A stretch of 47,850 bases of DNA from Candidatus Micrarchaeota archaeon (lineage in GTDB: Archaea > Micrarchaeota > Micrarchaeia > CAILAH01): assembly GCA_026413685.1 (NCBI GenBank), contig JAOAKK010000001.1, positions 1-47,850 of the forward strand, written 5' to 3'. Shown here piece by piece: positions 8,762 through 33,081 of this stretch (position 1 is the first letter of the stretch; each line of letters begins with the position of its first letter). The notes beneath the pieces are model-generated. The model searched no databases. It was given only the letters and a program-made list of their open reading frames with translations, and was not told the DNA's origin. The translations under genes were made by a program, and so were the position numbers.

Positions 8762-10201
8762 TTAGACTATATCAACGAGCAATTTTCCCGGGTCTTCAAG
8801 GTGCCTTTTCACTTCTAGCAGGAACCGTGCAGCTTCAGCACCGTCAGTTATCCTATGGTCAAACGTTAATGAAAGTGGCATGACATCTCTTATTACGATG
8901 CTGTTCCCCATAACAACAGGCTTCTTTTGTATTTTTCCTATGCCAAGTATTGCGCACTCCGGATAATTAAGCACGGGCACACCGTAAGTTGCCCCAATTG
9001 AGCCCCAGTTTGTTATCGTGAACGTACCCCCACTAACCTCATCCAGCGACAGTTCCCTTTTTCTGGCCTTGTCTGAAAGCACCATAATCTCACGCGCAAT
9101 ATCAATGATGCTTTTCAAATCAACATCCTTCACAACCGGCACGATGAGCCCATCCTCAGTATCAACAGCAATCCCGATATTATAGTATTTCTTTATTACG
9201 AACTCGTTGGTATGCTCATCCACTGTGGAATTAAGCCAAGGATGCCTTTTCAGTGCAATCACAGCTGCCTTAATCACAAACGGGAGATATGTTAGATGTA
9301 TCCCATCCTTTGCAGCATTGGCTTTTTCGCGCTCGCGCAGCTCAACAAGCTGTGTCACATCAGCATCTTCTATTGCAGTTGCCTGGACTGCAATACAGTT
9401 TGATTTTCCAAGGCGTGATATGATTGATTTCCTTACACCCTTGATAGGCACACGCACCTCAATATACTTTGCAAGCTCGCCTTTTAGTGGGTGTGCAATC
9501 TTCTCACTTATAGGTTCGGCCTCCTTATCCTTCTTAAGCTTGCCAACTTCGACGATACTTTCGAGCCTCTCCGCAGCACTTTGGACATCACGCTCGAGTA
9601 TCACACCGCCAGGCCCTGTCCCAGCAACCTTAGATAGGTCAATGCCCATCTTTTTTGCAAGGTCTCTGGCTTTTGGTACCGCTTGAACCATTGGTGGGTG
9701 CTCGTGCACCTTCTCAACAACACGCATGTCTTCGCTTCGGTCAAGCTCGCGGAGAACAGGCCTCTTTTTTGCTGCGGCTGCACGCACATCATCCTCGCTT
9801 ATTTCACCGTGCTTGCCAGTGCCTTTTACCATCTTAATATCCACACCAAGCTCACGCGCAAGTGCCCTTACACGCGGTGTTGCGAGCACATCACGCGGTG
9901 CTTCAGCACCTCGCGCAGGCACTTCACCAGCACCTATATTACTTACTACATCAACCTTTGCCGTTGCAGGGCCTATGGTGAGCAGCACACTCCCAACACG
10001 CGCAGTCTCACCTTCCTTGAACCTGAGCTCTATCACTTTCCCTTCCACAGGGGATGGGATCTCAACAACAGCCTTATCAGTCTCAACCTCAGCAATCTTC
10101 TGGTCTTTTTTAATTATGTCTCCTGGCCTGACAAGCCACTTGATGATTGTGGCCTCCTCCATCCCTTCTCCAAGGTCCGGAAGCTTAAATTCAAACACCA
10201 T
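8762..10201 (-). CDS. Dihydrolipoamide acyltransferase (E2) of a 2-oxoacid dehydrogenase complex
   Basis: Lipoyl domain (VETDKAVVEIPSP), two peripheral-subunit-binding-like segments, and catalytic motif TFDHRITDGAEAARF. Start set at MVFEFKLPDLGEG (ATG 10201). Confidence 0.9.
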   Translation of the reverse strand: MVFEFKLPDLGEGMEEATIIKWLVRPGDIIKKDQKIAEVETDKAVVEIPSPVEGKVIELRFKEGETARVGSVLLTIGPATAKVDVVSNIGAGEVPARGAEAPRDVLATPRVRALARELGVDIKMVKGTGKHGEISEDDVRAAAAKKRPVLRELDRSEDMRVVEKVHEHPPMVQAVPKARDLAKKMGIDLSKVAGTGPGGVILERDVQSAAERLESIVEVGKLKKDKEAEPISEKIAHPLKGELAKYIEVRVPIKGVRKSIISRLGKSNCIAVQATAIEDADVTQLVELREREKANAAKDGIHLTYLPFVIKAAVIALKRHPWLNSTVDEHTNEFVIKKYYNIGIAVDTEDGLIVPVVKDVDLKSIIDIAREIMVLSDKARKRELSLDEVSGGTFTITNWGSIGATYGVPVLNYPECAILGIGKIQKKPVVMGNSIVIRDVMPLSLTFDHRITDGAEAARFLLEVKRHLEDPGKLLVDIV

Positions 10202-10777: not shown

Positions 10778-11755
10778 TTAGTACCTCATCACATCTAGCA
10801 CGGCGCTTTTTACTTTCCTTTCGTTTGGTATGAAGTATTCTTCGAGCTTTGGCAGCGGCACGGGGACATCATACCCCGTGACACGGAGAATAGGCGCACG
10901 CAGGCTTGTAAGCGCCTTCTCAGCTATGCGCGCAGCAATCTCCGAAGATGCGCTAAACCCTCTCATTGCCTCCTGCACAATCACCAGCCGCCCAGTCTTT
11001 CTTACAGAATCAGCAATCGCCTTGTCATCGAGAGGCTTAATCGCCCTCACATCGATTATTTCACAGCTGATGCCATCATTCCTGAGCTCGTTTGCAGCGT
11101 TTTCTGCAACTCTTACCATTGCGCCCCACGCAACAATAGTAACATCCGCACCTTCACGGGCAATCCTGCATTTGCCTATAGGCAGTGTATACCTGTTCTC
11201 CGGAACATTTTCCTTGAATGCCCTGTAAAGCCTCTTATGCTCAAGGAAAAGGACAGGGTCATCCCACTCAGCGGCAGCTGCAAGAAGCCCTTTTGCTTCA
11301 TAAGGCCCTGAAGGCACAAGTATGGTTATGCCAGGTATGTTTGCAAACATCCCCTCAATGGGCTCGGCGTGAAGCTCAAGCGCGCGCACACCACCGCCAT
11401 AAGGCATCCTGATAATTATGGGCATGCTATACCTGCCACGTGTCCTGTTCCTTATCCTTGCAGCGTGCGCATTAATTTGGTTGTATGCAAGGAAAGAAAA
11501 CCCATCAAATTGTATTTCGGGGATTGGGCGCAACCCGGCGTATGCCATCCCAACAGCAGTCCCTATGATCCCAGACTCTGCAAGCGGCGTGTCAAATACT
11601 CTCTCCTGCCCAAATTTATCCTGAAGGCCATCCGTTACCCTGAATACACCACCATTTTTGCCCACATCCTCCCCGAAAATTACAATTCTCTTATCCCTTT
11701 CCATCTCTTGCGCCAGTGCCATGTTGATTGCCTGAATCATATTAACCTCAGCCAT
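10778..11755 (-). CDS. 2-oxoacid dehydrogenase E1 component, beta subunit
   Basis: Transketolase-like pyrimidine-binding region (VFDTPLAESGIIGTAVGMAYAGLRPI) plus C-terminal domain. Start set at MAEVNMIQAIN. Confidence 0.9.
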   Translation of the reverse strand: MAEVNMIQAINMALAQEMERDKRIVIFGEDVGKNGGVFRVTDGLQDKFGQERVFDTPLAESGIIGTAVGMAYAGLRPIPEIQFDGFSFLAYNQINAHAARIRNRTRGRYSMPIIIRMPYGGGVRALELHAEPIEGMFANIPGITILVPSGPYEAKGLLAAAAEWDDPVLFLEHKRLYRAFKENVPENRYTLPIGKCRIAREGADVTIVAWGAMVRVAENAANELRNDGISCEIIDVRAIKPLDDKAIADSVRKTGRLVIVQEAMRGFSASSEIAARIAEKALTSLRAPILRVTGYDVPVPLPKLEEYFIPNERKVKSAVLDVMRY

Positions 11756-11824
11756 AAAACCACCTACCTGCACATACATAGCCTGCCCTCAGCAGCCATG
11801 CCATAAAGCAAGATACCCATCATA

Positions 11825-12907
11825 TCACCTCGCAAACCTGCCAGCATCCTCAAGCTGCTCTTCAAGCTCAGCAGGCATCCTCGCATATACATTCTTGAAC
11901 ATGTGCGTATAATCACTCCTGAACGCCTCAGCCTCCTCAACAGCATGCTCAACCTCAACAGCCGCCTGCTTTATGATTTTCTTTTCCAGCACCTCGTTCC
12001 ATATCCTTTTTGCTTTTAGGTATTTCCTGAACCTTTCAATTGGGTCTTTCTTTTTCCACATCTCAATCTCATCCTCAGGCATGTACCTTTTTGGGTCATC
12101 AGCAGTTGTATGCATCCCCATCCTGTATGATACTGCTTCTATAAGCGTGGGGCCTTCACCTTTTCTTGCAGCGTCTACTGCTATTTTGGCAGTGTAATAC
12201 ATTGCAAGCACATCGTTGCCATCTGCTTGCACGCACCTGATTCCAGCAGCAATGCCTTTCTGTGCGATTGTTTTTGCAGCAGTCTGCTTTTTGCGCGGGA
12301 CTGAGATTGCCCATTGGTTATTTCTCACAACAAATACCACAGGAGCGCCATAAACACCCGCAAAGTTTAGTGCCTCATAAAAATCCCCCTCAGAACTGCC
12401 CCCATCACCAGTATATGTCATTACAACCTTATTCTCACCTTTATGCTTCATAGCCATCCCTATCCCGGCCGCATGCAGGAAATGTGTCGCTACAGGCACA
12501 CAGACAGGCGTAATGTTAAATTCGCGTGGAAGATGGTTGCCCTCTTCAAATCCCATAAAATACATAAGGAAATACTTGAGGGGCACACCCATAACGATGT
12601 ACATCCCCTGCTCCCTATACGCAGGCACTACCCAGTCATCCTTCCTGAGTGCAAACGATGTCCCTACAGTGATTGCCTCCTCACCCCTGCATGGCGCATA
12701 TGTCAGCATCCTTCCCTGCCTTTGCAAGTTTATGGCTTTCTCATCAAGCACCCTTGCAGTCACCATGCACCTGTAAAGCCCTATGAGCTGTTCCCTGCCA
12801 AGGCCGCCCCGCAAAAGTTCCTTCTCGAGCGCCTTATCAACAGCACCATTCTCGTCAAGCACCTGTATATAATCAACACTGCCAGAGAATACCTTTTTCA
12901 CAGCCAT
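11825..12907 (-). CDS. 2-oxoacid dehydrogenase E1 component, alpha subunit (TPP-dependent)
   Basis: TPP-binding motif GDGGSSEGDFYEALNFA...VVRNNQWAIS. Has its own SD-like GGAGAGGTG and an upstream TATA. Confidence 0.9.
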   Translation of the reverse strand: MAVKKVFSGSVDYIQVLDENGAVDKALEKELLRGGLGREQLIGLYRCMVTARVLDEKAINLQRQGRMLTYAPCRGEEAITVGTSFALRKDDWVVPAYREQGMYIVMGVPLKYFLMYFMGFEEGNHLPREFNITPVCVPVATHFLHAAGIGMAMKHKGENKVVMTYTGDGGSSEGDFYEALNFAGVYGAPVVFVVRNNQWAISVPRKKQTAAKTIAQKGIAAGIRCVQADGNDVLAMYYTAKIAVDAARKGEGPTLIEAVSYRMGMHTTADDPKRYMPEDEIEMWKKKDPIERFRKYLKAKRIWNEVLEKKIIKQAAVEVEHAVEEAEAFRSDYTHMFKNVYARMPAELEEQLEDAGRFAR

Positions 12908-17953: not shown

Positions 17954-18059
17954 GCACAACACCACTCTATTTAGCACCTCTACCATTTTTAAAAGTTTGT
18001 GAAGCAAAAACGCAAAAAAAGTATTTAAGCAACGTTCTCATTTCACCTTTATGGATAAG

Positions 18060-18143
18060 CGCTAGGGGGGAGATTTGAACTCCCGCGGCCTTGCGACCAC
18101 TGGATTAGCAATCCAGCGCCCTACCGGACTAGGCGACCCCAGC
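18060..18143 (-). tRNA. tRNA-Ser (GCU), no intron, no encoded CCA
   Basis: Folded by hand. Acceptor GCUGGGG/CCCUAGC, anticodon arm CUGGA-UUGCUAA-UCCAG, long variable arm UGGUCGCAAGGCCGC, T arm GGGAG-UUCAAAU-CUCCC, discriminator G. Confidence 0.9.
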
Positions 18144-18193: not shown

Positions 18194-18487
18194 GCAGATA
18201 GCTCTGTTTTCTTCCGCTGCACGTGGATTCACCGGGATGGACTGTGCACCAATGTTAAGGCACCCCGCACACCAACTCCCTCCTGTTGGCTTACGGCACG
18301 GCACACAGTGCTTAGGGCTGCTCCTTCCGGCCTAACCCGGTTCACACAATGAGCCGCCGCGTAAGGCAGGAGATCTACGCGGGACGTGCGGACCCGCTCA
18401 CCAGCACACAGCCTCTCCCGGCTTTTCGGCCCCGCCTAAAGGGGATCTGCGGTGACAAGGGACCCCTGGCCCCCCAGCCTATCCGGC
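18194..18487 (-). ncRNA. Signal recognition particle RNA (7S / SRP RNA)
   Basis: Minus-strand AGGCCGGAAGGAGCAGCCCUAAGC matches the conserved helix-8 motif with its GGAA tetraloop. Long helix-5 pairing (GGCUGUGUGCUGGUG with CAUUGGUGCACAGUC). The 5' GCCGGAUAGGCU pairs with the 3' AGCUAUCUGC. TATA about 20 nt upstream and a U-run just downstream. Ends are accurate to about +/-5 nt. Confidence 0.8.
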
Positions 18488-18502
18488 TTACTTTAAACAT
18501 TT

Positions 18503-18544: not shown

Positions 18545-18710
18545 TGCAGGGAGCAGGATTTTCAGGATTTCCTGGCAGAGCCCTTTAGGTATACCAAAAG
18601 GGAGTTTGAACCTGCGAAGGCGCTAGGCCACCAGATCTCCCATCACACTTTTGTGATGAAAGCACGGTGCATCTTGAGTCTGGCGCGTTTGACCACTCCG
18701 CCATCCCTGC
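18545..18710 (-). tRNA. tRNA-Leu (CAA) with two introns (canonical 37/38 and T-loop)
   Basis: Hand fold. Acceptor GCAGGGA/UCCCUGC with discriminator A. Anticodon arm CCAGA-CUCAAG|intron 18637-18672 (36 nt)|A-UCUGG. T arm GCAGG-UUCAAA|intron about 18559-18604 (about 46 nt)|U-CCUGC. Mature length about 84 nt with a long variable arm. Confidence 0.8.
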
Positions 18711-18819
18711 ACTTTTTGGATTAAGCGCTTTAAAACTATTTAATGCTATTTGCATGTATTTTGCAGTGTCCCCACGAAGAGATTTTCCGGTATAGCATTT
18801 ATTGGATAGGTCAAATGTA

Positions 18820-27010: not shown

Positions 27011-27019
27011 TAATTCGAG

Positions 27020-27176
27020 CGCCCCGGCCGGGATTTTCAGGAAGGGCACCGCCGCGTTCCGAGGTTTGTTTTGCGAAGCAAAACCCCCTGGGAGCGCGAG
27101 GGGCGGATGCGCCTTCACTTCGAACCCGGGTCGCAGCCGTGACAGGGCTGAATGCTATCCGCTACACTACCGGAGC
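27020..27176 (-). tRNA. tRNA-Asp (GUC) with an 85-nt intron in the T-loop
   Basis: Hand fold. Acceptor GCUCCGG/CCGGGGC (U3-G70 wobble), discriminator G. Anticodon arm CAGCC-CUGUCAC-GGCUG. T arm CCGGG-UUCGAA|intron 27034-27118|U-CCCGG. Mature length about 72 nt. Confidence 0.8.
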
Positions 27177-32860: not shown

Positions 32861-32895
32861 AACCGCATTCTATTTTTCCAAAAAGAAAGAAGTAG

Positions 32896-33081
32896 AGCCG
32901 AGGAAGGGATTTGAACCCCTCTCTGCCGGTCACTGATGGGGCACCAAAGGTTCCCCCTCGTGTTTTTCTGGCACCGCTCTTTTGGCAGTTGTGTGCGAGA
33001 GCACACAATTCGCAACCAAAGGTTATGACTCCCAAAAGAACGGCTCTGCAGCCGGCCGCATAGCCACTCTGCCACCTCGGC
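32896..33081 (-). tRNA. tRNA-Cys (GCA) with a 115-nt intron at the canonical 37/38 position
   Basis: Hand fold. Acceptor GCCGAGG/CCUCGGC, discriminator U73 (the tRNA-Cys identity base). Anticodon arm GCCGG-CUGCAG|intron 32931-33045|A-CCGGC. T arm AGGGG-UUCAAAU-CCCUU. Mature length about 71 nt. Confidence 0.8.

Follow-up and report, generated by a model that had tools for sequence, protein, structure and literature searches.

A Micrarchaeota tRNA-Leu(CAA) gene with introns at the canonical 37/38 site and at T-loop position 59/60

In the bulge-helix-bulge (BHB) splice motif, each strand consists of an outer helix, a 4-bp central helix, a 3-nt bulge and a further outer helix, with the cut falling after the second base of the bulge. 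The strict 3-4-3 form, hBHBh', whose h' helix forms within the intron and adjoins both bulges, is the substrate of the alpha4 and alpha'2 enzymes. The closest described systems for the gene considered here are those of ARMAN-2 (Candidatus Micrarchaeum acidiphilum), in which 56% of the tRNA genes are disrupted and whose epsilon2 enzyme cuts strict as well as relaxed motifs (PMC3239211). The tRNA-Cys(GCA) gene of this organism carries a T-loop intron with an hBH motif at position 59/60 (Fujishima 2011, PMC3239211 Fig. 1B), and its pre-tRNA-Pro(GGG) contains two T-loop introns, located at 53/54 and 59/60 (PMC3239211 Fig. 1C). Cleavage of the T-loop intron of pre-tRNA-Cys(GCA) was assayed by Hirata 2012 (PMC3488258 Fig. 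7E). The ARMAN-2 enzyme, which is represented by PDB 4fz2, cuts the relaxed T-loop 59/60 intron in vitro in a lysine-dependent manner (PMC3239211, PMC3488258), and it is the specificity loop with its lysine that allows cleavage of this relaxed intron of pre-tRNA-Cys (Hirata 2012, PMC3488258). Multi-intron tRNAs and transposed introns are furthermore reported for the Thermoproteales, which possess an (alpha-beta)2 endonuclease (Sugahara 2008 and Fujishima 2010, as cited in PMC3239211).

The tRNA-Leu(CAA) gene described here comes from a genome of the Micrarchaeota, tiny archaea of the DPANN group, and is located well within a 47.8-kb contig (the window, i.e., the whole stretch of 47,850 nucleotides that was analyzed), and it is of the same kind as the published ARMAN-2 genes, in a different tRNA and a different genus. 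With tRNA-Cys(GCA) of ARMAN-2, a member of the same phylum, it shares the 59/60 position and a relaxed hBH motif built on the T-stem; it differs in the identity of the tRNA, in an unrelated intron sequence and in its additional 37/38 intron, whereas the published figure of tRNA-Cys(GCA) depicts a single non-canonical intron. The ARMAN-2 tRNA-Pro(GGG) gene is, like tRNA-Leu(CAA), a multi-intron Micrarchaeota tRNA gene with an intron at 59/60, but both of its introns are situated in the T arm and have strict hBHBh' motifs, whereas tRNA-Leu(CAA) has one canonical intron and two candidate motifs that are both relaxed. The host enzymes are alike in being of the epsilon2 type with a specificity-loop lysine, although EndA of the present genome is only 50% identical to that of ARMAN-2. 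As far as they are summarized in PMC3239211, the Thermoproteales resemble the present genome in having many non-canonical or multiple introns, relaxed BHB motifs and homologous introns across tRNA genes; they differ from it in phylum, in enzyme architecture and in the positions of their introns, which are scattered rather than concentrated at 59/60. The layout with a 37/38 and a T-loop intron is already documented for the lineage, and it is routine in this genome.

The gene comprises the following elements, given by position in the window (the arrow ↓ marks a cut):

18737-18743, minus strand: TTAAATA, resembling a TATA box and lying 27-33 nt ahead of the mature 5' end, a putative archaeal promoter element judged from sequence
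18545-18710, minus strand: tRNA-Leu(CAA) gene, precursor region of 166 nt, no encoded CCA
18673-18710, minus strand: exon 1, 38 nt, GCAGGGAUGGCGGAGUGGUCAAACGCGCCAGACUCAAG; acceptor 5' strand, D arm, anticodon-stem 5' strand and loop to G37 (anticodon CAA)
18675-18678, minus strand: exon strand CUCA (32-35: C32-U33-C34-A35) of the proposed 4-bp central helix at 37/38
18637-18672, minus strand: intron 1, 36 nt, canonical 37/38 position, AUGCACCGUGCUUUCAUCACAAAAGUGUGAUGGGAG; hairpin UCAUCACA/UGUGAUGG, extendable to about 10 bp
18639-18642, minus strand: intron strand UGGG of the proposed 37/38 central helix, followed by the 3-nt bulge AG↓A38; alternatively paired in the intron hairpin
18605-18636, minus strand: exon 2, 32 nt, AUCUGGUGGCCUAGCGCCUUCGCAGGUUCAAA; A38, anticodon-stem 3' strand, long variable arm, T-stem 5' strand and T-loop UUCAAA
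18607-18610, minus strand: exon strand UUCA (54-57: U54-U55-C56-A57) of the T-loop central helix
18559-18604, minus strand: intron 2, 46 nt, T-loop position 59/60, predicted relaxed hBH, CUCCCUUUUGGUAUACCUAAAGGGCUCUGCCAGGAAAUCCUGAAAA; internal hairpin CCCUUUUGG/CCUAAAGGG, 3' part repeating T-arm AAAUCCUG
18561-18564, minus strand: intron strand UGAA of the T-loop central helix, followed by the bulge AA↓U60
18545-18558, minus strand: exon 3, 14 nt, UCCUGCUCCCUGCA; U60, T-stem 3' strand, acceptor 3' strand and discriminator A73

Joining the three exons in silico yields an 84-nt RNA that is called as tRNA-Leu(caa) by ARAGORN, with all stems closed (acceptor 7 bp, D 3 bp, anticodon 5 bp and T 5 bp), a long variable arm, the T-loop UUCAAAU and discriminator A73. 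The spliced product is a canonical class-II tRNA-Leu. All three exons are colinear inside 166 nt, which is not the arrangement of a split or permuted tRNA gene.

As had been foreseen in a preliminary description of this DNA, standard finders miss the gene: the unspliced locus receives no ARAGORN call, with or without the intron option, and scores 16.2 bits with the Rfam tRNA model RF00005, below the threshold of 29. In a genome-wide scan, 79,674 segments bounded by a 4-bp central helix and a 4-bp outer helix were each excised and ARAGORN was re-run, which returned tRNA-Leu(CAA) with exactly the introns 18637-18672 and 18559-18604. A second, motif-free scan, which required only closure of the T-stem and a restored 7-nt loop and ignored the central helix, led to the same solution, its single competitor being an excision of 68 nt. 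The latter was rejected, as it has none of the four central-helix pairs, introduces G.U and mismatched positions into the T and acceptor stems and conflicts with the orthologues. The preliminary description, which had proposed a tRNA-Leu(CAA) with these same two introns, the second at about 18559-18604, proved exact with regard to the spliced 84-mer, the scans and the orthologues. A second Leu(CAA) gene was not found in the assembly (64% complete), and the only one present is missed by routine tRNA finders; because such genes escape these programs, Micrarchaeota MAGs look tRNA-poor unless intron-aware methods are applied.

On sequence comparison, the exon borders are fixed by uninterrupted orthologues independently of any splicing motif. 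The Leu(CAA) genes of two genomes (G013 and G017) lack both inserts and are colinear with the three exons, the inserts falling at 37/38 and in the T-loop. Since these orthologues are colinear with the exons and independent MAGs share the interrupted architecture, the two-intron structure is not due to chance. By sequence alone, the T-loop junction could be placed at four equivalent positions (56/57 to 59/60) within a run of A residues, all giving the same product; the BHB register picks 59/60.

In the same-genus genome G002, the exons are identical to those of the present gene at 84 of 84 positions and intron 1 at 31 of 36 (86%), whereas the T-loop intron is only 35 nt long and unrelated (25/46 identical). 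Both introns are also present in G006, a member of the same family, where the T-loop intron measures 86 nt and the exons are 79/84 identical, with a compensated change in the anticodon stem from CCAGA/UCUGG to UUAGA/UCUAA (CC/GG to UU/AA). Compensated stem changes are likewise found in G008, which, together with G005 of the same family, has the 37/38 intron and no T-loop intron. The G008 orthologue (L008, G008:C3, about 11698-11860) additionally contains a GC-rich insert of 31 nt between positions 31 and 32. No paralogous copies of either Leu(CAA) intron were found elsewhere in the genome, and there is consequently no direct sign that these introns themselves transposed.

Orthologues in a Micrarchaeum-type family, i.e., those of the cultured Candidatus Micrarchaeum sp. 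A_DKE (L117, NZ_CP060530.1, about 635723-635830) and of G012, G022 and G027 (L009, L013 and L011, respectively), are also interrupted in the T-loop, but they have no 37/38 intron and their mini-intron of 11-18 nt (18 nt in A_DKE) is located at 58/59 and ends in GRAY-AAA↓. This type of mini-intron appears to fit a strict 3-4-3 BHB whose register is slipped by two bases versus the mature T-stem; read by hand, it would consist of a helix 49-52/60-63 and a central helix formed by 53-56 with GRAY. The 58/59 register was also tried by hand for intron 2 of the present gene and rejected, as GUUC cannot pair with CUGA.

Both Leu(CAA) junctions can, as modelled, form a relaxed hBH motif. At the T-loop site the outer helix (h) is the T-stem GCAGG/CCUGC, which would be extended by the UUCA/UGAA central helix; the 3' bulge AA↓U60 has 3 nt and the 5' cut (A58-A59↓C) lies in a multiloop. 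At 37/38 the outer helix is the anticodon stem CCAGA/UCUGG and the candidate central helix is CUCA/UGGG, with a 3-nt 3' bulge (AG↓A38) and the 5' cut (A36-G37↓A) in a larger loop. At neither junction was a contiguous h' helix found (scan flag 'h' only), and for this reason both motifs are classed as relaxed hBH and not as strict hBHBh'. The prediction for the T-loop agrees with the preliminary description, which had suggested there a relaxed BHB formed with exon sequence, here the T-stem. In its 59/60 position, its T-stem outer helix and the participation of 54-57 in the central helix, intron 2 is of the Micrarchaeota/ARMAN-2 type. The BHB-constrained fold at the T-loop site lies 3.1 kcal/mol above the free minimum, and in the minimum-energy folds of both introns an intron hairpin partly sequesters the intron strand of the central helix.

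Comparison across tRNA genes gives strong support to the T-loop central helix. In the motif-free scan, which constitutes the unbiased test, it is paired 4/4 at a fixed offset in all ten credible T-loop-interrupted tRNAs. Among 15 T-loop junctions from six genomes, a set that was preselected for pairing and is circular in this respect, every position pairs in every junction and two of the four helix pairs are changed on both sides. Compensated variants comprise UUCG/CGAA in His and UCCA/UGGA in Leu(UAA) of G007. The Leu(UAA) genes L105 (G007:C16) and L110 (G008:C2) have the T-loop UCCAAAU, with a C at the normally invariant U55, and their intron strands have co-varied to UGGA/UGGG. The 3' end of intron 2 contains the tandem AAAUCCUG(A)AAAUCCUG, as the preliminary description had reported; this duplication of the T-arm is, however, dispensable for the motif, the same-genus orthologue and the other T-loop 59/60 introns being devoid of such a repeat.

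The genome (609 kb in 49 contigs, 64% complete) encodes on contig C7 an EndA of 392 aa, with the Pfam domain tRNA_int_endo_N and two matches to the catalytic domain. EndA aligns without gaps to PDB 4fz2 over 377 residues (16-392; E = 1.8e-124, 49.9% identity) and has the epsilon2 layout, in which alphaN, alpha and betaC units are combined in one chain of about 390 aa. The specificity loop GTYKVSEH of ARMAN-2 (G158-H165) reads GTYKADKH in EndA, and the ARMAN-2 residues K161, Y236, H251 and K282 correspond to K166, Y241, H256 and K287, so that the catalytic triad and the specificity-loop (ASL) lysine are kept. Judged by these features, the host encodes a three-unit epsilon2 splicing endonuclease, in line with the ARMAN-type host and broad-specificity endonuclease that had been put forward from the DNA of the window. 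The closest relatives of EndA in public genomes (114 relatives found, the best 86% identical) are all labelled Micrarchaeota/Micrarchaeia, which identifies the source as a Micrarchaeota MAG. An RtcB ligase is also encoded in the genome. A second, EndA-like protein of 150 aa was noted (G000 C44:15212-15661, minus strand, = L003:1474-1926), which scores 23.8 bits with Pfam, below the cut-off of 27, matches PDB 1a79 with E = 4e-8 and in the alignment apparently has a Glu at the position of the catalytic His. It occurs in seven of the eight genomes of the family and, more weakly, in a few others, and may represent a structural subunit or a splicing regulator.

For intron 1, the CAUCACA/UGUGAUG hairpin that was announced in the preliminary description is present, yet the BHB motif is less clean than was implied there, as a hairpin of about 10 bp competes with the central helix, the two being mutually exclusive. 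When RNAalifold was applied to five orthologues, the 10-bp hairpin CUUUCAUCAC/GUGAUGGGAG, which uses the same 3' bases as the BHB helix, was preferred; its outer part contains two pairs that are changed on both sides, and the BHB-constrained fold lies 6.6 kcal/mol above the free minimum, which contains the hairpin. The five orthologues thus support the BHB helix no better than the long hairpin. It is conceivable on this basis, albeit improbable, that both inserts of a functional gene are removed without intron 1 being presented as a classical BHB, the conserved hairpin being its native fold, in which case the endonuclease would need a conformational switch or would recognize a more degenerate helix-bulge arrangement. 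Both compensated hairpin pairs, however, derive from a single genome, G005, and the BHB helix is 95% paired by pair counts among the orthologues; as its exon side is invariant and cannot vary, the missing covariation says nothing against it. Furthermore, the hairpin fold places the 3' cut beside a 1-nt bulge, a geometry that is not among the substrates reported in PMC3239211 and PMC3488258, and the hairpin could merely be the stable form of the excised intron. A C/D-box guide RNA within the introns was considered and dismissed by eye, with only a partial C-box-like GUGAUGG and no D box in intron 1.

From the computed exon/intron structure, conservation, splice motif and enzyme genes, the locus is best explained (probability roughly 0.88) as a functional, single-copy Micrarchaeota tRNA-Leu(CAA) gene whose precursor of about 166 nt contains two BHB-type introns that are cut by the epsilon2 EndA, the exons being joined by RtcB. 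We infer transcription, cleavage and ligation, and the choice of fold for intron 1, as follows. The gene would be transcribed as a precursor of about 166 nt with two protein-spliced introns; at each site the exon stem (anticodon stem or T-stem) would be extended by a 4-bp helix between exon bases located 3-6 nt before the 5' cut and intron bases located 3-6 nt before the 3' cut, which would then fall in a 3-nt bulge, with the 5' cut in a larger loop, giving a relaxed hBH. Both sites would be cut by the three-unit epsilon2 endonuclease, after which RtcB would join the exons and CCA would be added. That standard finders miss the locus might instead be taken to indicate a pseudogene in decay, or the remnant of a disrupted tRNA gene, whose inserts are not spliced. 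This is very unlikely, given that the exons are perfectly conserved in the same-genus genome, in contrast to the diverged flanks and intron 2, that the stem changes of G006 and G008 are compensated, and that this is the sole Leu(CAA) gene found in the assembly, itself 64% complete; the same architecture moreover occurs in about a dozen other isoacceptors of the genome, not all of which can be dead. In a MAG that is fragmented into 49 contigs, chimeric joins inside the tRNA gene, arising in assembly or binning, could in principle have produced the inserts; such an artefact is scarcely credible, however, as the independent MAGs G002 and G006 have inserts at the same two sites, the locus lies well inside its contig and the ends of both inserts fit the splice motif.

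The twice-interrupted Leu(CAA) gene is typical of its genome and no oddity. With default settings, ARAGORN returns a single tRNA for the whole assembly, Ser(GCU) at 18059-18143; intron-aware searches identify about 28 tRNA loci, of which about 27 are interrupted and 12 carry a 59/60 intron, these counts being approximate in that some ARAGORN anticodon calls are unreliable. The 59/60 introns have the signature GUUC(A/G)A(A/U)↓...(U/C)G(A/G)AAA↓UC..., and most of the genes concerned also have a 37/38 intron. The carriers are:

Glu(CUC), His(GUG), Ala(GGC), Arg(CCU), Leu(CAA) and Asp(GUC), the last at window 27019-27176
an Ile-like gene on contig C12 and a gene without isoacceptor call on contig C13
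Gly(UCC), Ile(GAU), Arg(UCG) and Ala(UGC)

Between tRNA-Ser(GCU) and tRNA-Leu(CAA), an SRP RNA is located at 18232-18489 (minus strand); it passed the bacterial large-SRP model with 79 bits in a search of the whole window, and with its 3' end truncated in the query it matched the archaeal model.

A common module, GCAGGGGCCCAGCGGCCCCCGCACCCCUUGCAACC..., opens the T-loop introns of Glu(CUC), Ala(GGC; two tandem copies) and Ile(GAU); it is 100% identical over 36-55 nt and is found at the following loci:

G000 C3:16628-16736
G000 C7:12022-12168
G000 C42:126-161

Copies related to this module are confined to the same family, where six of the eight genomes have up to ten copies each. An identical intron module in different tRNAs suggests intron spread or gene conversion. 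Position 59/60 of the T-loop might, in the Micrarchaeota family to which this genome belongs, be a hotspot at which introns continue to spread or to be exchanged. This tentative reading, which we consider possible and somewhat less than probable, is prompted by the interruption of about 27 of 28 tRNA genes (12 at 59/60), by the fully identical module in three tRNAs and by the complete replacement of the Leu(CAA) T-loop intron between two same-genus genomes with identical exons. If it were true, the Leu gene would be a snapshot of intron turnover and the lineage could serve to test how protein-spliced introns move.

The Leu(CAA) gene itself leaves the picture of 2011-2012 unchanged, adding one substrate and a genome-wide context to what is known of how broad-specificity endonucleases and disrupted tRNA genes co-evolve. 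More interesting than the gene is the wider pattern of near-total interruption, concentration at 59/60, identical modules and turnover of the Leu T-loop intron.

Several further tRNA genes of this genome deserve mention. The tRNA-Asp(GUC) gene (window 27019-27176, minus strand) has a 59/60 intron of 85 nt and no anticodon-loop intron, and its 3' junction, CCUGAAAA↓UCC, is identical to that of Leu(CAA). For tRNA-Cys(GCA) (window 32895-33081, minus strand), an insert of 115-118 nt in the anticodon loop was found, an alternative scan solution consisting of two introns, of 25 nt and of 86 nt after about nt 45. A Lys(UUU) gene (G000 C47:~9180-9290) has its T-loop insert in another register, at about 56/57, and a Ser gene on the same contig (G000 C47:23082-23333) combines a D-loop insert with a canonical intron. 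Finally, the genome has two tRNA-His(GUG) genes with nearly identical exons (G000 C7:436-673, minus strand, and C40:476-585, plus strand), one of which contains 37/38 and 59/60 introns and the other only a canonical intron of 37 nt.
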